Shown here: positions 33,799-50,530 of the stretch, one piece after another | Numbering within the stretch: position 1 is the stretch's first letter | How the letters are laid out: each line of letters begins with the position of its first letter | NCBI GenBank assembly: GCA_963422625.1 | Contig: OY730416.1 | Location: 835,607-899,606 of the forward strand | DNA length: 64,000 bases | Direction: 5' to 3' | Source of the DNA: an uncultured Ferruginibacter sp. | GTDB lineage: Bacteria > Bacteroidota > Bacteroidia > Chitinophagales > Chitinophagaceae | Made by a program: the position numbers and the translations under genes | Notes under the pieces: generated by a model | Database searches by the model: none | The model's input: the letters and a program-made list of their open reading frames with translations, nothing else | What the model was told of the DNA's origin: nothing

Positions 33799-35964
33799 TT
33801 ACTTTAAATTACTCATAAAATAATCTGTAACTTTTTGATACAAGTGTGCACGGTCTTTGCCCAATACATTGTGTTCGTGTCCGGGGTATATCATGTAATC
33901 TACCTGCACACCTGCATCCACACAGGCTTTTACAAAATTTACAGAATGCTGTTGCACCACCACCGGGTCCTGCAGGCCATGTATCAATAATAATTTATCT
34001 TTTAACTTACCTGCCTGTTTAATCAGGTTGGTGGCTTCATAGCCTTCAGGATTTTCCTGCGGCGTATCCATATAACGTTCCCCGTACATGATCTCATAAT
34101 ATTTCCAGTCCATTACAGAACCGCCTGCAACAGCCGCTTTAAATACACCGGGGTGATTCAATACAAAATCTGTTGTCATAAAACCACCATAGCTCCAGCC
34201 GAACAAGCCCATATTATTTTTGTCAACAAATGATAAAGCTGTTAAATAATTTATACCACTTACCAGGTCTTCCATTTGTGCTTCTCCTGCCCTGCGAAAA
34301 ATAGTTTGCTCAAACACTTTACCCCTGTTATCACTTCCCCTTGTATCCAGTGTAAATACTATATAGCCACGCTCGGCCATATACTGAAACCAGTAATCGC
34401 CGGCACCTCCATTCCAACTATTCAAAATCATTTGTGCATGAGGGCCACCATACCAGTATACAATCACCGGATATTTTTTGGTACTGAGCGTAGCCGAAGT
34501 ATCGAAATTTACGGGTTTAAACATTCTGCAATACAAGTCAGTACCGGTATTATTTTTTATAGTGAATATGCTGAGCTTGCCCATTGCATAATCGGCAATT
34601 GGATTGGCAGCCTGCAGCAGTTCTTTTGATTTTGCAGTTTTGATGTCTGTAACCTGTATTGCTTTTGGATTATCAGTAGTGCTATAGGCATCGATAATGG
34701 TACTGCCATCTGTACTCACCTGTGCTGTATGCACACCTGTTGCTACCGTAATTCTTTTTGACTGGCCGGTTTTTAAATTAAGCTGGTATAAATTTTTTGT
34801 AATGGGAGATTCTTCTGTTGCTGAGTAATATAAGTTTTCGCCCTTTGCATCAAAGCCTTTTACTTCCAATACTTCCCAGTTTCCTTTGGTAAGTTGCTTT
34901 ATCAAGCTGCCATCTGCATTATACAAGTATAAATGATTCCACCCATCACGGTTGCTTTGCCAGATGAACTGGTCAGGTTTATTTTTTACAAAAAGCATCG
35001 GCACCAGTGGTTCTACATATTTATCATCTTTTTCTTCGAACAATGTTTTGGCAAACTCCCCTGTGTTGGCATTGTACTGGTTGAGCTTCATATGGTTTTG
35101 TTCCCTGTTCAGCACCGCAATGTAAACCCATTTATCATCCGGGCTCCAGGCAATATTGGTAAGATACTGGTCTGTGGGTATCCCTGTCCTCAACCATGTA
35201 GTGGAATTGATAACAGCGTTATAAATACCTACCGTTACGTAATGGCTTTGGCCTCCGGCCATTGGATATTTGATATTTTTATTTACTGCGGGATATGTTG
35301 TCCAGTCGATGATGGGATAATCAGTTACCATACTTTGGTCCATACGGTAATAGGCCAGCAGTTTGCCATTATTACTCCAAAAAGTACCTTTACTGATACC
35401 AAACTCATCCCGGTGTACCGATTGTGCATACACGATATTTGCACTACCATCTTTAGTGACCTGCTTTGTACCGTAAAAGGTGGAGTTTACATACAAGTTA
35501 TTATTATCTACGTAGGCTACAAATCCTGCACTGCTTTCTTCCACTGCAGTTTTATCCGTAAAAGTACTTTTTATTATTTCTTTAGTTTGATTCGTAACAG
35601 GGTTCAAAGCAATTTTACTACCGTTTGCAGTAAATATCCAGTCTGCAGAAGTATTGAATTGAATAAAGGGCATAGTTTTTAGTTCGCCATAGCCTGCTGT
35701 TTTAATTTTTTCATTTAATTGTTCTAAGGTAAGAAATGGCACTTCTGCAGTTTTCATATTCCCTTTTACCCAAACATCTTTTCCTTCTACCTTTTTTAAA
35801 TACACATAATCGGTGGTGCCGTACACAAACTGCAGTTGTTTTAAATTTTCTGCTGCAAGCGTGGTGCGGTTGTTCACCATCGCATCCTGCATGGTGAGTA
35901 ATTTATTTTGTGCCAGCAATGTAATGCTGATGAAAGCGGTAAGAAAGAGAAATATTTTTTTCAT
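33799..35964 (-). CDS. Dipeptidyl peptidase IV (peptidase S9B)
   Basis: The 721-aa protein has a signal peptide and an N-terminal DPP IV beta-propeller region. Its C-terminal alpha/beta hydrolase domain has the nucleophile GWSYGG, with Asp and His in HGLQDPVV and PGHEH. Confidence 0.9.
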   Translation of the reverse strand: MKKIFLFLTAFISITLLAQNKLLTMQDAMVNNRTTLAAENLKQLQFVYGTTDYVYLKKVEGKDVWVKGNMKTAEVPFLTLEQLNEKIKTAGYGELKTMPFIQFNTSADWIFTANGSKIALNPVTNQTKEIIKSTFTDKTAVEESSAGFVAYVDNNNLYVNSTFYGTKQVTKDGSANIVYAQSVHRDEFGISKGTFWSNNGKLLAYYRMDQSMVTDYPIIDWTTYPAVNKNIKYPMAGGQSHYVTVGIYNAVINSTTWLRTGIPTDQYLTNIAWSPDDKWVYIAVLNREQNHMKLNQYNANTGEFAKTLFEEKDDKYVEPLVPMLFVKNKPDQFIWQSNRDGWNHLYLYNADGSLIKQLTKGNWEVLEVKGFDAKGENLYYSATEESPITKNLYQLNLKTGQSKRITVATGVHTAQVSTDGSTIIDAYSTTDNPKAIQVTDIKTAKSKELLQAANPIADYAMGKLSIFTIKNNTGTDLYCRMFKPVNFDTSATLSTKKYPVIVYWYGGPHAQMILNSWNGGAGDYWFQYMAERGYIVFTLDTRGSDNRGKVFEQTIFRRAGEAQMEDLVSGINYLTALSFVDKNNMGLFGWSYGGFMTTDFVLNHPGVFKAAVAGGSVMDWKYYEIMYGERYMDTPQENPEGYEATNLIKQAGKLKDKLLLIHGLQDPVVVQQHSVNFVKACVDAGVQVDYMIYPGHEHNVLGKDRAHLYQKVTDYFMSNLK

Positions 35965-36043
35965 AATTATGTATTGATAGACAAATGTATTGAAAAATGT
36001 TTTGGCCAGATGGCGTTGTCAGTCTCACACAGCTACATGAGGG

Positions 36044-36095
36044 CCTCACTGCTCACATGGTCAGACGAGGGCGTCAGACCATGTGAGCAGTGAGG
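36044..36095. repeat. REP-like palindrome L
   Basis: The sequence cctcactgctcacatggtcagacg-aggg-cgtcagaccatgtgagcagtgagg has 24-nt arms with one A/A mismatch. The core GGTCAGACGAGGGCGTCAGACC lies at 36059-36080. Confidence 0.85.
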
Positions 36096-36646
36096 TCAAA
36101 ACAAGCCGCATATCTGCTTCGCCAATTGCATATTGCAAATAGAGTTAGCCCGTAATCCATTATAAGACCGAAAAGATGACCATTTCCAATCTGCTGCATG
36201 TGTAACAATGCCTGCAGCTATTGCGTTGTTGTGGATATAATTGAATGTATTGAGATAATAATCTTGCCTTGATAAAAACTGGCTATTCAATTCCGCTTCA
36301 TCATTTAAACAAATAGCTTTTGTTTTTGGCCGGAATAATGCTCCGCTTCGGTTATTTTTTATATTAAATTCATGGGCATAAGTACTCAGCAGTTTTCTAA
36401 AGCCATTGGTAACGGGATCAAGAATCAACCCTCCCGTTGCCTTACTTCCAGGCGCCGGCTATCTGTATAAATCATAAAATGAAAATGATTGTGCATGAGG
36501 CACCATGCCAGAGTTTCGCAATGCAGTGCAATATATTGTTGATATAACTGGAGGAAATAAAGGAATTGAAAATCCTGAATAAAAATATTTTCCTGGTTGT
36601 TTCCCTGGTTGTAAACATGGTAAACGTTTTCTGGGAGAAATTTCAT
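36096..36646 (-). pseudogene. REP-associated tyrosine transposase (RAYT) / IS200-like Y1 transposase, split by one frameshift into ORFs 36425-36646 and 36096-36428
   Basis: The N-terminal ORF has YHVYNQGNN and the HUH motif in LMHNHFHFMIY. The C-terminal ORF has SGALFRPKTK and the catalytic Tyr motif NYIHNNAIAAG. The second frame is open from 36469 and overlaps the end of the first frame. Confidence 0.75.
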
Positions 36647-36706
36647 GGCCTAACTTTTTGGTTAAGGCTTTCATGAAGAGAAGGTTTATGGTTGTTGTGG
36701 CCTGTA

Positions 36707-36737
36707 ACATGATCGGACGTGGACGTTCGGATCATGT
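36707..36737. repeat. REP-like palindrome R1 (a diverged core)
   Basis: The sequence acatgatcggacg-tgga-cgttcggatcatgt has the core GATCGGACGTGGACGTTCGGATC, which resembles the GGTCAGACGAGGGCGTCAGACC core. Confidence 0.6.
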
Positions 36738-36738
36738 G

Positions 36739-36782
36739 CGATTCAACAAGGTCAGACGAGGGCGTCAGACCTTGTTGAATCG
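36739..36782. repeat. REP-like palindrome R2
   Basis: The sequence cgattcaacaaggtcagacg-aggg-cgtcagaccttgttgaatcg has a 22-nt core at 36750-36771 identical to that of L. It keeps the same A/A mismatch, but its outer stem is unrelated. Confidence 0.85.
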
Positions 36783-36783
36783 C

Positions 36784-36834
36784 CTGTTCCGCCACATGGT
36801 CTGACGCCCTGTCCTGAACCATGTGGCAGAACAG
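36784..36834. repeat. REP-like palindrome R3, in inverted orientation relative to L
   Basis: The sequence is ctgttccgccacatggt-ctgacgccctgtcctga-accatgtggcagaacag. Its reverse complement aligns with L through cacatggtYcag..ac.agggcgtcagaccatgtg. Confidence 0.8.
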
Positions 36835-36837
36835 TAA

Positions 36838-39216
36838 CTAATTGCGTAAAGGCTTTCCACTCTTCAACACACTCTGAATCCTTTCCAAAGTTTTCTTCTC
36901 ACCCGTTAAGCTTAAAAAAGCTTCTCTTTCCAGGTCAAGTAAATATTGTTCACTTACTAATTGTTGTTCGCTTAAATCTCCGCCGCACATTACATAGGCT
37001 AATTTTTTTGCTACAGTCACGTCGTGGTCGGTGGCGTAATTGGCACGCCACATGCCGTTAATACCAGCATGCATAGCGCCCAATGCACTACGCCCTAAAA
37101 CTTTTATATCAGTTCGCTGTACCGGCATTACATAGCCATCATCATACAATTCAATAACGGCCTGTTTGGCTTCCGCAATTCTGCGGCCCTGGTTGATGCT
37201 CACCAGATCATTTCCTTTTCTGTAAATGCCCAGATCAAATGCCTCATAAGCAGAAGTGCCCACTTTTGCAGTGGCAATAGTTAAGAAACGATTTTGTAAG
37301 GTTAAAGTATCCACTTCGCCATCATGCATTTCGTCTGCGGCACGTAATACAAATTCTTTTGTGCCACCGCCACCGGGAATTACACCAATACCCACTTCCA
37401 CCAAACCGGTATAGGTTTCTGCTGCAGGAATTACTTTGTCCGCATGCAAACACATTTCGCAACTGCCACCTAATGCTAAACCATGTGGTGCCAACACCAC
37501 CGGTATGCCGGAATAACGTACCCTCATCATGGTGTTTTGAAACATGCGTATCGCCATATCAATTTCATCATAATCCTGTTCAATAGCTAGCATAAATATC
37601 ATACCCACATTGGCGCCGGCGCTAAAGTTGGGGCCATCATTACCAATCACCAGTCCTTTATACTTTTCCTCGGCAATTGAAATTGATTTTTGGATACCTT
37701 CTAAAACTTCGCCCCCAATGCTGCCCATTTTGGTGTACCATTCCAGGCCAAGTACATCATCGCCCAAATGATAGGTGCGGCAGGCACTGTTCTTCCAAAT
37801 GGTTTGATTGCTGAAGTTCTTCATCACAATAAATGCGTCTGCACCCGGTAATGCCTTGTAGTCCTTACTGGTTACGTCGTAGCATAAACGCTTTCCGTTT
37901 TCTACTTTGTAAAAAGAAGTATTTCCGGCTGCAATCATTTCATCCACCCAGGCTGCTACTTTATACCCGGCTGTTTTCATTGCGGCTGTAGTTTTTGCCA
38001 CGCCCAATACGTCCCAGCTCTCAAAAGCGCCGATCTCCCAGCCAAAACCAGCCATCATACCATCATCCACCCGGTAAAGTTCATCACTTATTTCGGGGAT
38101 GCGGTGACTGATGTAAGAAAATAAACTGTAATGAAACTGGCGGTAAAATTCGCCAGCTTTGTCTGTGCCTGCACACAAGGCTTTCAATCTTGATGCCAAA
38201 TCTTCAATAGGCTTAGCCGTTTCTAATGTTGCAAATTTTGGTTTTTGCCTTGGCCCGTATTCCAGTGTTTGCAGGTTCAGCGTTAAAATTTCTTTTTCGC
38301 CGGTTGCAGATTTTGTCTTCTTAAAAAAACCCTGGCCCGTTTTATCGCCCAGCCAGTTATTCTCCACCATTTTATTTAACCACGCCGGAATAGCGAATAC
38401 AGCTTTTGCTTCATCATCAGGACAATTATCTGCAACACCTTTGGCAACTTTTACCAGAGTATCAATGCCCACAACATCCGCCGTTCTAAAAGTGGCAGAC
38501 TTGGGACGGCCAATAACCGGGCCTGTCAACGCTTCTATCTCATCAATATTCAAATGCAATTTTTCCATGGCATTCATAATGGCCATCATACCAAATACGC
38601 CTACACGATTAGCAATAAATGCAGGAGTATCTTTACACAATACTGTTGTTTTACCTAAATACAGATCACCATAGTGCAATAAAAAATCAACAATTTCCGG
38701 ATCGGTAAATGGCGTGGGAATAATTTCTAATAAGCGCAAATACCTTGGCGGATTAAAAAAGTGTGTGCCGCAAAAATGTTTTTTAAAATCGTCGCTCCTG
38801 CCTTCTGCCATCATGTGAATGGGAATGCCGGATGTATTGGAAGTTATTAATGTACCGGGCTTGCGGTATTTTTCTACTTCGGCAAATACCGACTGCTTAA
38901 TGTCTAACCTTTCTACCACTACTTCTATCACCCAATCGCAACTGGATATATCTTTCATGTTATCTGTAAAGTTGCCGGTCTTAATTTTTTTTATTGCATC
39001 CTTTGTATATACTGGCGATGGATTACTTTTTATGGCGGCTGCCAAAGCATCATTCACAATTTTATTTTTTTCTGCAGGTTTAGCATCTGCTGCAAGATCT
39101 TTGGGTTGAATGTCTAACAATAATACTTGTAAACCTACACCTGCAAAGTGGCAGGCAATACGGCTACCCATTACGCCGCTACCTAAAACCGCTACTTTTT
39201 TAATAATTCTTTTCAT
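36838..39216 (-). CDS. 3-hydroxyacyl-CoA dehydrogenase / enoyl-CoA hydratase fusion protein (FadB/FadJ-like, with the dehydrogenase domain first)
   Basis: From the ATG at 39216 the protein starts MKRIIKKVAVLGSGVMGSRIACHFA (NAD Rossmann motif). The 3HCDH signature region is TSNTSGIPI...FCGTHFFNPPRYLRLLEIIP, and the C-terminal part is crotonase-like. The track ORF carries 32 extra N-terminal codons. Confidence 0.88.
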   Translation of the reverse strand: MKRIIKKVAVLGSGVMGSRIACHFAGVGLQVLLLDIQPKDLAADAKPAEKNKIVNDALAAAIKSNPSPVYTKDAIKKIKTGNFTDNMKDISSCDWVIEVVVERLDIKQSVFAEVEKYRKPGTLITSNTSGIPIHMMAEGRSDDFKKHFCGTHFFNPPRYLRLLEIIPTPFTDPEIVDFLLHYGDLYLGKTTVLCKDTPAFIANRVGVFGMMAIMNAMEKLHLNIDEIEALTGPVIGRPKSATFRTADVVGIDTLVKVAKGVADNCPDDEAKAVFAIPAWLNKMVENNWLGDKTGQGFFKKTKSATGEKEILTLNLQTLEYGPRQKPKFATLETAKPIEDLASRLKALCAGTDKAGEFYRQFHYSLFSYISHRIPEISDELYRVDDGMMAGFGWEIGAFESWDVLGVAKTTAAMKTAGYKVAAWVDEMIAAGNTSFYKVENGKRLCYDVTSKDYKALPGADAFIVMKNFSNQTIWKNSACRTYHLGDDVLGLEWYTKMGSIGGEVLEGIQKSISIAEEKYKGLVIGNDGPNFSAGANVGMIFMLAIEQDYDEIDMAIRMFQNTMMRVRYSGIPVVLAPHGLALGGSCEMCLHADKVIPAAETYTGLVEVGIGVIPGGGGTKEFVLRAADEMHDGEVDTLTLQNRFLTIATAKVGTSAYEAFDLGIYRKGNDLVSINQGRRIAEAKQAVIELYDDGYVMPVQRTDIKVLGRSALGAMHAGINGMWRANYATDHDVTVAKKLAYVMCGGDLSEQQLVSEQYLLDLEREAFLSLTGEKKTLERIQSVLKSGKPLRN

Positions 39217-39349
39217 GTGTTTATTTTTATTATCCCGGTCACATGAAACGCTCCTGCTAAGATGGTAAGTTAGAAACACTTTCTTTACAGGCGCTATTTC
39301 ATATAACAGCAATTGATTTATGTATTAGCAAAAATAATCCTCTTTACTG

Positions 39350-47113: not shown

Positions 47114-48817
47114 TTATTTTTCTATTTTGCCCAATGCATATTTAAAATCTAAAGCAGAGGTAGGTTCAAATGAAAGGTCTTTATAAATACCTTCCGTTAT
47201 TACAGTATTTTTTACGACAGACACCGTTTGGCCATCTTTTATCCCCACACTAATGATTTTTACAGGTTCTCCAACAGGAACATTGTCGAAAATTGCATAA
47301 TTCCCATTTACTCCTGCCTGCATGATAGATTTAAAATTTTCAAACACCATAAATGTCATATAGTTGAATGAGCTATCTTTTAAGTCTACAATAAACACCC
47401 CTGTTTTTCCGGGGTACTTAAAAAATCTGTCGCAATTTATCCAGCCTAATTTATTTATGCCGATGCTGTATTTTTCTCCAATGTTTGTAAGCGTGTTAGC
47501 AGGGAAATTGGGCTGGCGCATATCTTTAAACCCCTTGTTTACCCATTGAACCACCTTATACACTGTATCAATAGGTTCCAGTTTATTGATCTTTATGGTA
47601 AGTGGTAATAATTCAGCAGTATCTCCCACTCCATAAGAATTATAAACAAGATGATAATACTCTTCTTCTACGGCATCTATTTTTTGAAATAACAGGTCTC
47701 TTTTCCACAGTCTACGTACCCTGATTTTATCGTAGTAGTCTCCATATTTTTTTTGCAAAACTGCTTTCAACTCATCTTTACTGTAAACTGATTTTGTGGA
47801 CCTATAAAAAACCGCTTTTGTTTTTCCATTGTATACAGTATAGTGGATGTTGTCGTCTTTCAGATCAATAGCTCTGATAAACATTTTAAGCACTGGAGAA
47901 TCTATTCTAACCCTCGTGAGCTGCCAGTTAATTTTACTTTGTTGCGCCAGGTTTGATGCAATAGTATCTACAGTGTTCTTTGTAACCCCTTCAAATATTT
48001 CCATCGAATCTTTAGGTGTAAGATCAGGAATAAAAACCCTGATCTCTTTGCCAGGATTAATCAGCACCTCCCGGCCTTTTACTTTTGCACATATGTAAAG
48101 CATTCCGCCAGTAACCAGCTGTCTGTTATCCGACATGGTGGTAAGCCCATTAGCCACCATATCAGCATATTTATAAAATTCTTTCACTTCAAACACTACA
48201 GAATCTTTTGTGTCAAATGAATTAGCAGGGATAAATACTACACTGCCTTCGTTGCATATCACTGTTGTATCTTTTGTATTATCAATTGCAAATAATTCCT
48301 GCTTCTTTTGCAGGCTTGCCATTAGGTTATTAAGCATCGCCTGTTTTTCCCCAAAGCTTAAAGCATCTTTTTTAGCAGGTTCATTCCGGATAACTACACT
48401 ATCAGAAATTGCAGCGTCCAATTTTATAATTGTTACTTTTCTATTATTATTTATAGATTGCTTTAGTATAGAAATTATTTTTTGTGAAGCAGAGTTATTG
48501 TTAATTGTACTTGTACTGGCAATAGTTGTATCGGTTTTTACAATAGCATTATTTTGCTCGATCTTACTTTCAGTTGCAATTGTTGCATTTTTTATTGAAG
48601 CGCCTTTGTAAGTAATTAAAATGATGGCGCATACAAGCACTGCTGCTCCAGTGAACCACCACCCGGCTTTTGAAATGAGTGGTTTTGCCTTTGGCAGATA
48701 AGCAGGAAGCACAGCCTGCATTTGCTTCCAGTGTGCATCCATCTGGCTAAGATCGGGCAGTTGCTGATTTTCCAGTTGCCTTAATTGATTTTCAATATTG
48801 TTGTTATCCTGCTGCAT
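47114..48817 (-). CDS. Putative anti-sigma factor: a single-pass membrane protein with a large uncharacterised extracytoplasmic domain
   Basis: It overlaps the upstream ECF sigma gene by 14 nt. It has a ~50-aa cytoplasmic N-terminus, one TM helix (WWFTGAAVLVCAIILITY) and a ~490-aa C-terminal region with no recognised motif. Confidence 0.55.
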   Translation of the reverse strand: MQQDNNNIENQLRQLENQQLPDLSQMDAHWKQMQAVLPAYLPKAKPLISKAGWWFTGAAVLVCAIILITYKGASIKNATIATESKIEQNNAIVKTDTTIASTSTINNNSASQKIISILKQSINNNRKVTIIKLDAAISDSVVIRNEPAKKDALSFGEKQAMLNNLMASLQKKQELFAIDNTKDTTVICNEGSVVFIPANSFDTKDSVVFEVKEFYKYADMVANGLTTMSDNRQLVTGGMLYICAKVKGREVLINPGKEIRVFIPDLTPKDSMEIFEGVTKNTVDTIASNLAQQSKINWQLTRVRIDSPVLKMFIRAIDLKDDNIHYTVYNGKTKAVFYRSTKSVYSKDELKAVLQKKYGDYYDKIRVRRLWKRDLLFQKIDAVEEEYYHLVYNSYGVGDTAELLPLTIKINKLEPIDTVYKVVQWVNKGFKDMRQPNFPANTLTNIGEKYSIGINKLGWINCDRFFKYPGKTGVFIVDLKDSSFNYMTFMVFENFKSIMQAGVNGNYAIFDNVPVGEPVKIISVGIKDGQTVSVVKNTVITEGIYKDLSFEPTSALDFKYALGKIEK

Positions 48818-49394: not shown

Positions 49395-49504
49395 GTAATA
49401 TATATAACTGCAGTGCAGTAAAAAAGGGTTGGGTTAATTTTACATTTTTTTTGGGAGTACTGCTTAAATCTCCATTTTTTAATAAATAACTGTAAATTAG
49501 AATC

Positions 49505-50530
49505 ATGAACCGTAAACATTTTCTCTCCTCCATAATTCCACTTGGTGCTGTGCTTACCGCTGCAGGCAATAATAGTTTTACTTATGAGCCTGATATGCCG
49601 GTTAAAATTCCACCCTATTTAAAAAAGGGCGATACCATTGGCATTACATGCCCTGCCGGTTTTATTACTGCAGAAGATATTCAACCTGCGGTTATTAAAA
49701 TGCAGGAATGGGGCTATTCCATAAAGATTGGTGATACAGTGGGTAAAAAAGATTTTACGTTTGGCGGTACTGATGATGAGCGGCTGAAAGATTTTCAGCA
49801 AATGCTGAATGACAACACTGTTAAAGCCATCATGTGTGCAAGGGGTGGTTACGGTGCTGTGCGTATCATTGACGGTATTGATTTTAAAAAATTTGTCCTG
49901 CATCCCAAATGGATTATTGGTTTTAGTGATGTTACGGTAATGCATTCGCACCTGAATAAAAATTTTGGTATCGCTTCCATTCATTCTAAAATGTGCAATA
50001 GCTTTCCTGCAGACTGGAGTAAAGCCGAACCGGTGCAGATGGAAACCATTGAATCAATACAAAAATGTTTGTCGGGAGAAAAAATGAATTATGCGGTTGT
50101 GCCCAATGAGAAAAATAAACCCGGTATTGCAGACGGTGTTTTAATTGGTGGTAATTTAAAAACCCTGGAAACACTTGCCGGCAGCAAAAGCGATATCAAT
50201 ACCGATGGTAAAATTTTATTTGTGGAAGATACCGGCGAATATTTATACAGCATCGACCGTATGTTCTGGAATTTGAAACGTACCGGAAAACTCAGCAAAC
50301 TTAAAGCCCTTATCATTGGTGGCTTTAAAGTAAAACCTTCTGAAGATCCCGCTGAAGAATTTGGAAAAAATATTTACGATATTGTTTTAGAAAAAATAAA
50401 AGATTACAACTATCCCGTTTGTTTTGATTTTCCTGTGGGCCACCAAAAAAATAATTTTGCATTAAAATGTGGCGTTAAACATAAACTTACGGTAACAGCA
50501 GCCAATGTTTCTTTAGCTGAGATACGTTAG
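49505..50530 (+). CDS. LD-carboxypeptidase (peptidase S66) with an N-terminal export-type extension
   Basis: It has PYLKKGDTIGITCPAGF, ARGGYG and the nucleophile motif GFSDVT. A 36-aa hydrophobic N-terminal extension (MNRKHFLSSIIPLGAVLTAAGN) is absent from the paralog at 54582. Confidence 0.85.
   Translation: MNRKHFLSSIIPLGAVLTAAGNNSFTYEPDMPVKIPPYLKKGDTIGITCPAGFITAEDIQPAVIKMQEWGYSIKIGDTVGKKDFTFGGTDDERLKDFQQMLNDNTVKAIMCARGGYGAVRIIDGIDFKKFVLHPKWIIGFSDVTVMHSHLNKNFGIASIHSKMCNSFPADWSKAEPVQMETIESIQKCLSGEKMNYAVVPNEKNKPGIADGVLIGGNLKTLETLAGSKSDINTDGKILFVEDTGEYLYSIDRMFWNLKRTGKLSKLKALIIGGFKVKPSEDPAEEFGKNIYDIVLEKIKDYNYPVCFDFPVGHQKNNFALKCGVKHKLTVTAANVSLAEIR

Follow-up and report, generated by a model that had tools for sequence, protein, structure and literature searches.

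A probable REPtron in Ferruginibacter: a RAYT gene bracketed by footless hairpins with variable outer stems

A gene for a Y1 transposase of the HUH type that stands between long palindromes raises the question of what kind of locus it belongs to. It may be the remnant of an insertion sequence (IS) of the IS200/IS605 type, the palindromes may serve the host and have no link to the gene, or the two may form a REPtron, in which repetitive extragenic palindromes (REPs) accompany a gene that encodes a REP-associated tyrosine transposase (RAYT, also TnpA_REP). Such a gene is found in a 64-kb stretch of DNA from an uncultured Ferruginibacter sp. (contig OY730416.1), referred to here as the window; loci from relatives carry L-numbers (L001, L002 and so on). 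The evidence makes it very probable that this locus is a REPtron, consisting of a class 2 Y1 HUH RAYT gene bracketed by its own extragenic hairpin family. How REPs spread and what role domesticated transposases play are still unsettled questions, which gives the locus an interest beyond its own annotation.

The RAYT gene and the hairpins around it

The gene lies on the minus strand and is split into two open reading frames (ORFs), 36425-36646 with the HUH motif (HNHFHFM) and 36096-36428 with the tyrosine motif (YIHNNA); both motifs had been named in a preliminary description of this DNA. In a DNA alignment with four relatives the gene shows a 1-nt gap at ~36428/36429, where a G-rich run is one base short. 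Once the missing G is restored (junction ..RRLEVRQRGGLILDP..), the repaired protein has 183 amino acids (aa); its HUH motif (NHFH) is found at residue 53, its YIHNNA at 137 and its WKWSS at 154. It aligns end to end with 29 intact homologues of 182–218 aa. The family consensus reads YIHxNP followed by W.WSS, with W154, S157 and S158 invariant, which is a class 2 (RAYT) signature, unlike the Y-x3-Q of IS200 (PMC6006769). The missing G is either a real inactivating deletion, in which case the system is inactive in the source genome, or a homopolymer assembly error.

By profile and predicted fold, E. coli TnpA_REP is a closer match to the repaired protein than the IS200/IS608 transposases are. 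The NCBIfam profile REP_Tyr_transpos (NF047646) is matched over its full length by all 30 family members (best E 8.7e-15), while the IS200-like Pfam profile Y1_Tnp (PF01797) is matched by nine of the 30 and gives 13 bits for the repaired protein. A search of the PDB with the family profile returned 4ER8, E. coli TnpA_REP, as the sole match; the same search with the single sequence returned none. Foldseek also placed 4ER8 first (E 1.7e-7, TM 0.60/0.65 over 182 columns) when queried with the predicted fold, an AlphaFold2 model with a pLDDT of 92.5. The IS608, ISDra2 and IS200 transposases followed at E ~5e-4 to 3e-3 and TMq ~0.4, with IS608 and ISDra2 at E ~5e-4 to 1e-3. The protein does not side with IS200 TnpA, in line with its first assignment to the RAYTs.

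Four palindromes surround the gene, L at its stop codon and R1, R2 and R3 upstream (Table 1). All four had been recognised before, with only the limits of R2 needing correction (36738-36783, not 36739-36782). L and R2 share the 22-mer GGTCAGACGAGGGCGTCAGACC, which has exactly two exact + strand matches in the 64 kb (chance expectation 0); searching the window with up to three mismatches gave no third match. The described A/A opposition is confirmed as the sole non-pair of both hairpins, in arms of 24 nt (L, 96% complementary) and 21 nt (R2, 95%). Beyond the core, L has an outer stem of 15 bp and R2 one of 12 bp, both perfect, with no sequence in common. A covariance model built on 95 family copies of the hairpin scores the two at 52 and 49.5 bits, respectively. 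R3 has 17-nt arms that are 94% complementary (one mismatch) with 17 nt in between, and scores 14.5 bits (E 0.06). Because the core recurs as its reverse complement in the inner part of R3 (25 nt with 88% complementarity to 36061-36085), L and R3 are mutually inverted, as previously proposed. R1 is weak on its own in the covariance model (10.8 bits, E 0.85). At its position, closest to the gene start, L108 and L101 have a weakly degenerate copy (GATCAGACG.. / GATCTGACG..). When folded as single-stranded DNA (ssDNA), L, R2, R3 and R1 reach −27.6, −22.5, −16.1 and −7.9 kcal/mol, and all four fall far below shuffled controls (z −12.6, −10.2, −5.8 and −3.1, respectively).

A hairpin family, dispersed in relatives, that follows the gene

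In relatives, the hairpin core is not confined to the RAYT locus. One genome per species was scanned with the pattern GGTCWGACGNNNNCGTCWGACC, and the figures rest on the matches listed. At least 119 stretches were found, nearly all from Ferruginibacter, Chitinophagaceae or Chitinophagales and with several loci per genome, including at least nine dispersed loci in Ferruginibacter 5N345 and at least six in SUN106. Ten loci among the matches listed bear the gene and ~90 hairpin loci lack it. The earlier expectation that the core would recur elsewhere is borne out in these relatives and not in the other 63 kb of the window.

The family consensus, ACAT-GGTCAGACG-RGGR-CGTCAGACC-ATGT, folds into a stem of 13 bp that keeps a single conserved A·A mismatch and is closed by a purine-rich tetraloop. 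The scan pattern fixes 18 of the 22 core positions, leaving two W positions, the loop and the flanks free of bias. At the two free stem positions AA occurs in 70 copies and TT in 72, and pairing is possible in only two of 144 (Chitinophagales, among the matches listed). Of the 22 listed matches that come from unrelated taxa, 20 form perfect palindromes. Cores fall within stop-free stretches of at least 150 codons in 19% of cases, versus 86% of random positions, and the copies are mostly extragenic in Ferruginibacter and other Chitinophagaceae relatives.

Copies occur among the matches listed as 70 singletons, 28 doublets and 17 larger clusters. The 79 adjacent pairs (up to 200 nt apart) comprise 34 inverted (TA 24, AT 10) and 45 direct pairs, with spacings of 7–167 nt and no single mode. 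Inverted doublets of the kind known as REPINs, for which the preliminary description had proposed a test, occur beside singletons and direct tandem arrays, and among the matches listed they do not appear to be the main form of the family. Tandem arrays of three to five hairpin and spacer units were also observed, at L072:6800-7120 (minus strand), L102:1260-1403, L068:4956-5228 and L125:1-109, with periods of ~43, 38, 81 and 29 nt, respectively. An apparent ‘flip-flop’ inversion of the core at orthologous sites (L007 vs. L024; L033 vs. L017, L081 and L109) was considered and set aside, as differential loss from inverted doublets can also explain it.

The link between gene and hairpin was assessed in 80 metagenome loci fetched through the protein. 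Orientation is given on the sense strand of the gene, where GGTCTGACG..YCCY.. is called T-type. Among homologues of at least 44% identity the core is present upstream in ~21 of 25 and downstream in ~24 of 28. The upstream copies are mostly T-type and the downstream (outermost) copies A-type, read in the sense of the gene. Among the ~50 homologues of 42% identity or less, the core occurs in at most two. At 46–52% identity the core changes to GGTCAGACCGGGACGGTCAGACC with the A·A mismatch retained. Gene and hairpin co-vary, since the presence and form of the core track the identity class of the RAYT. The distant homologues have palindromes shared between their flanks, with an exact inverted flank-to-flank match of at least 12 nt in 17 of 46, versus 1.7% of mismatched flank pairings.

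Several variants were seen around these homologues. The flanks of L152–L201 (33–42% identity) hold different flank-shared palindromes, many of them built on the near-palindromic heptamer GTCAGAC (e.g. GTGTCAGACAC..., GCGTCTGACAC...). Judged by sequence, this suggests a deep recognition theme common to the wider RAYT clade. L140 and L143 (45–46% identity) carry a variant core, GGTCCGACC..GGTCGGACC, which lies downstream of the RAYT homologue at a distance of ~176–179 nt. A C-G pair has taken the place of its mismatch, giving a natural ‘corrected’ hairpin. In L014 (4629-4658) and L055 (318-347) a T-type hairpin in the sense of the gene starts at the extreme 3' end of the RAYT coding sequence, and the reading frame appears by eye to enter the hairpin and end at an internal TGA.

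The chromosomal setting bears on whether the gene is a mobile element. Its conserved upstream neighbour is a FadB-like gene, the 3' end of which anchors the locus. The RAYT gene directly follows this gene in L001 and L002 (found through the protein, 74–75% identity), and the same synteny is seen in L101, L108 and others, down to ~46% identity. A FadB-like tail, K-P-[LV]-R-N-stop, lies just upstream of RAYT in 19 loci of 46–83% identity, and most RAYT protein clusters were seen on one contig each. Because it follows the FadB-like gene across this range of identity, the RAYT gene behaves as a domesticated, single-copy, vertically inherited gene, unlike an insertion sequence.

This setting leaves little room for a decaying IS200/IS605-type element, in which the hairpins would be left-end and right-end structures and the gene an ordinary TnpA pseudogene. 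Such an element would share the Y1 HUH fold, the weak Pfam Y1_Tnp match and the frameshift of the gene, and the imperfect ssDNA hairpins of IS608 and ISDra2 are likewise recognised via a mismatch or loop base. A direct repeat could also be cited in its favour: in L131 a perfect 50-nt copy (951-1000 and 1760-1809) brackets the hairpin-RAYT-hairpin unit, 809 nt from start to start. In IS200/IS605, however, the whole multi-copy element moves, the hairpins of both ends point the same way, the catalytic tyrosine stands in a Y-x3-Q motif and a guide tetranucleotide lies 5' of the hairpin. Here the flanking hairpins are mutually inverted, the gene keeps one chromosomal site in relatives down to ~46% identity, ~90 hairpin loci among the matches listed lack it, its motif is YIHxNP with W.WSS, and TnpA_REP is the nearest structure and profile. 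No tnpB-like gene was called beside RAYT in L001 or L002, or among the window ORFs around it. The IS200/IS605 alternative is largely refuted and can be given hardly any credence, which agrees with the original statement that the gene is not flanked by IS200-type ends. As to the L131 repeat itself, its sequence is the 3' end of the FadB-like coding sequence. It resembles a long target duplication or repair scar and hints at a recent rearrangement of the unit or its insertion site.

Alternatively, the hairpins could serve the host in regulation or structure, for instance as terminators or as stabilisers of the 3' end of the FadB-like mRNA, with no functional link to the Y1 gene. The first upstream hairpin lies within a few nt of the FadB-like stop codon and its stem can include the stop, the copies are extragenic, and REPs of E. 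coli affect mRNA stability (as summarised in PMC3733652). However, the presence of the core sharply follows the RAYT clade (at least 44% vs. at most 42% identity), and the core stands on both sides of the gene in opposite orientations. The stems are followed by no T-run, and a scan for terminator-like sites found none. The conserved A·A mismatch is also hard to square with a mere stable-stem function. A purely host-serving role is very unlikely, though the hairpins could have a host role in addition to their link with RAYT.

Nonetheless, several points count against the REPtron assignment. The RAYT gene of the window is itself frameshifted, and the protein scores lie under the curated cut-offs (37.8 vs. 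80 bits in NCBIfam; <23 in Pfam). The covariance model found no significant match in the other ~63 kb of the window beyond the RAYT locus, and apparent copy numbers of the hairpin are modest among the matches listed. The invariance of the core is partly ascertainment because so much of it was fixed by the scan pattern. Over 142 oriented copies no unpaired GT[AG]G-type foot was found, only the mutually complementary ACAT/ATGT flanks. Finally, cleavage and mobility are assumed for this RAYT subclass by analogy.

Table 1. Features of the locus in the window, in the order of their positions
Feature	Position	Strand	Evidence and remarks
DPP-IV/S9 peptidase-like gene	33799..35964	-	Downstream neighbour; Pfam families of the L002 orthologue
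Probable decayed fifth hairpin copy	36004..36026	.	GGCCAGATGGCGTTGTCAGTCTC; in the gap that separates hairpin L from where the S9 peptidase-like gene starts; low confidence
Hairpin L	36044..36095	+	Exact core 36059-36080, A-type on + strand; adjoins the RAYT stop codon
RAYT/TnpA_REP-like Y1 HUH gene	36096..36646	-	ORFs, three-frame translation, homologue alignment
Hairpin R1	36707..36737	+	Degenerate copy ACATGATCGGACGTGGACGTTCGGATCATGT; 11-nt arms; ACATG/CATGT flanks and TGGA loop kept
Hairpin R2	36738..36783	+	Exact core 36750-36771, A-type on + strand
Hairpin R3	36784..36834	-	Degenerate copy in opposite orientation; + strand reads GGTCTGACGCCCTGTCCTGAACC
FadB-like 3-hydroxyacyl-CoA dehydrogenase/enoyl-CoA hydratase gene	36838..39312	-	Pfam families of the L001 and L002 orthologues; blastn synteny

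The remaining features of the window add detail to this layout. Hairpin R3 begins 7 nt past the FadB-like stop codon (36838-36840). On the other side, the S9 peptidase-like neighbour is present in L002, L101 and L108 and absent at that position in L001. The probable fifth copy aligns with intact copies in L101, L108 and L002, beside a conserved block, CAAATGTATTGAAAA; the covariance model gives no match at its position, where the sequence is too eroded. The window site orthologous to the L048 copy (~49395-49505) holds no copy. A covariance-model match at 48133-48162 (E 0.83) is an unrelated 30-nt palindrome, ACATGGTGGTAAGCCCATTAGCCACCATAT, inside ORF 47114-48817 and most likely due to chance. 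A search of Rfam gave sub-threshold miRNA-precursor matches only, as any long hairpin would.

Origin of the outer stems

The outer stems of the hairpins raise a separate question, as they are perfect in pairing but vary in sequence. Perfect extension by at least 8 bp beyond the core is seen in 26 of 144 copies among the matches listed, versus 1.3e-4 in controls. The extended stems are unrelated in sequence among copies, AT-rich and not terminator-like. In the locus of the window, all three well-preserved hairpins are long-stemmed (15, 12 and 17 bp), compared with ~18% of family copies that reach 8 bp. The preliminary description had noted that the outer stems are unrelated and that those of L and R2 are perfect, and both observations hold. 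It had taken them as a sign of selection for the hairpin, and here a different origin is preferred. On the sequence evidence, the outer stems are somewhat more probably products of single-step templated inverted copying of the flank than of stepwise compensatory change.

The site behind the FadB-like gene is the informative case because nearly all relatives have the core there, with or without an outer stem. In L001, L102, L066, L127 and L135 the left arm takes in the FadB-like stop codon and reaches 5–11 nt past it into the coding sequence. The right arms are its exact complement, including lineage-specific codons (GGAATTAA, GAAATTAA, GCGGAATTAA, CTGTGAGGAATTAA). In sister lineages (L101, L023, L124, L142) the core stands at this site with hardly any extension or none. 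Since the coding arm cannot have arisen as the copy, the other arm was probably templated on it. A second instance is found in L072, where the spacer recurs, exact and inverted, behind the last unit of the tandem array and so forms a 17-bp outer stem.

Stepwise compensatory mutation, with the stems built and kept under selection for hairpin stability as first suggested, has some support. Of 95 distinct copies, 93 form the core-adjacent base pair and 33 double changes are seen at it, and outer stems at orthologous sites differ yet pair. However, many independent lineages have arms of 12–17 bp that pair perfectly or almost perfectly, with occasional single defects (L001, L123), and no range of partly paired stems is seen. 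A constrained coding arm is mirrored base for base by the other arm, and the L072 array ends in an exact inverted spacer copy. Point mutations are much less likely to have assembled arms of this kind than one templated event. Compensatory change is thus an unlikely source of the stems, although selection may decide which extensions survive.

The order of events could also be reversed, with the core as a small mobile element that enters the middle of palindromes already in place, making the outer stems older than the core. Single-strand transposases do act on folded DNA, and the end of the FadB-like gene holds a palindrome, GGAATTAATTCC. However, each lineage would then need its own long, perfect palindrome at this one site, different from those of the others, and the outer stems are AT-rich rather than terminator-like. 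Moreover, the core occupies the post-FadB site in almost all relatives regardless of the outer stem. Since it is there with or without an outer stem, the core appears ancestral at this site and the arms lineage-specific additions. Insertion of the core into older palindromes is accordingly quite improbable.

Templated copying of the flank faces difficulties of its own. No before-and-after orthologous pair for one stem extension was cleanly identified, as intergenic divergence is too high, and the mechanism of stem growth is read from end states only. As a tentative proposal, which we hold less firmly than templated copying as such, the hairpins may lengthen by fold-back or template-switch copying of whatever adjoins them, the last codons of a neighbour included, sparing both the RGGR loop and the A·A mismatch. 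The mismatch escapes the perfecting of the stem, which fits a role in recognition. If this is true and nicking of the hairpin foot by RAYT drives it, the outer stems would record, as footprints, REP processing and dissemination that proceed without a GTAG guide.

Template-switch mutation is familiar from quasi-palindromes of E. coli, where one arm of an imperfect repeat is turned into the exact complement of the other. The outcome there, an exact complement, is that of the outer stems here. Unlike the stem extensions, the E. coli events are short corrections at mutation hotspots, and they would also be expected to mend the A·A mismatch, which is retained here. We know of no description of template switching as a systematic route of REP hairpin growth.

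Working model and comparison with known systems

To our knowledge, all RAYT biochemistry comes from the proteobacterial groups 2 and 3 and depends on a GTAG foot. The model that we infer for binding, cleavage, mode of dispersal and stem growth borrows its first steps from E. coli TnpA_REP. By this analogy, the RAYT enzyme would bind the hairpin folded on ssDNA, and the mismatch and loop would let it discriminate the two strands. It would then cut and rejoin close to the foot of the hairpin, and repetition of this cycle would seed intergenic hairpin copies over time. The long, perfect, lineage-specific outer stems would be secondary hairpin growth, in which the flank on one side of a resident core is copied inverted onto the other side. 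Fold-back priming, or template switching by replication at the quasi-palindrome, may provide the route.

The family is of interest as a compact, 30-nt, footless alternative substrate, the core of which has stayed nearly unchanged while the enzyme diverged to ~45% identity. Its visible secondary events, stem extension and tandem arrays, could reveal how hairpins are processed. It also offers a ready test set for a poorly characterised Bacteroidota subclass, with a repairable enzyme, A-type and T-type substrates and natural mismatch-corrected variants.

Among known repeats, the CGTC-tagged REPs (Di Nocera et al. 2013, PMC3733652) resemble the present hairpins in having CGTC and a 4-nt loop and in being reported in Bacteroidetes among other phyla. 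They differ in their unpaired terminal CGTC tag, 8–9 bp stem and CCA tail and in having no transposase. Membership of this group was rejected, as here CGTC is paired inside the stem, there is no CCA tail and a RAYT gene is associated.

The E. coli REPtron (TnpA_REP/YafM with its REP/BIME, or bacterial interspersed mosaic element, repeats; PDB 4ER8; group 2, subclass 2.2) is the best structural and profile match. Both systems have a single-copy gene between inverted REPs, REPs that are dispersed intergenically and often clustered, and a stem with a conserved irregularity, on which activity depends in E. coli. Correcting the bulge of the E. coli REP abolishes TnpA_REP activity, and single-stranded irregularities aid strand discrimination (PMC8266576). 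Conversely, the two proteins share only ~14% sequence identity, the 5' GTAG foot is absent here, the irregularity is an AA-GC bulge in E. coli and a single A·A mismatch here, and the apparent copy number is far lower here. The accounts of the E. coli, group 3 and subclass 2.6 systems in PMC8266576 and PMC6006769 make no mention of variable perfect outer stems.

The closest published counterpart is found within the Bacteroidota. Quentin et al. 2018 (PMC6006769) defined it as TnpA_REP subclass 2.6, and it corresponds to group 5 in the RAYT classification by Bertels et al. 2017 (PMC5581495). Its members are mostly from Bacteroidetes, with a mean length of 179 aa, a HuH-Y spacing of ~82, YIH[QN]NP and an SS motif, and their genes are bordered by unusual secondary structures without GT[AG]G that have copies elsewhere in the genome (PMC6006769). 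The 16-mers flanking group 5 genes have ~31 occurrences per replicon (PMC5581495). The novelty in Bacteroidota that the preliminary description had suggested is to this extent smaller, as a RAYT subclass with atypical, GTAG-less hairpins was already published (PMC6006769, PMC5581495), while its reading of the locus as REPtron-like is supported.

Judged by published motif signatures, the present system mostly matches subclass 2.6. The two agree in their Bacteroidota host, low copy number and moderately abundant flanking motifs. They also agree in protein length (183 aa here), HuH-to-Y spacing (83 here), a tyrosine motif of the YIHxNP type and a C-terminal SS. Footless hairpins flank the gene in both and have copies elsewhere, which here are seen in relatives, and the REP of Cytophaga hutchinsonii, CCATGGTCTGTGGCACACAGAAC, resembles the present family in style. 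The differences lie in NHFH (family-wide here) in place of NH[LIV]H, and in F-R (stretch LFRPKTK) at the WQ position. The core GGTCAGACG..CGTCAGACC is not among the subclass 2.6 REPs in Table S1 of PMC6006769, and no Chitinophagaceae example was found in that table. Hence, the system is a further member of a Bacteroidota RAYT/REP kind already described, and no new kind of system. What it adds is modestly new, namely a family-scale core with a fixed A·A mismatch, hairpins with no guide-like foot, and apparent hairpin growth by copying of the flank.

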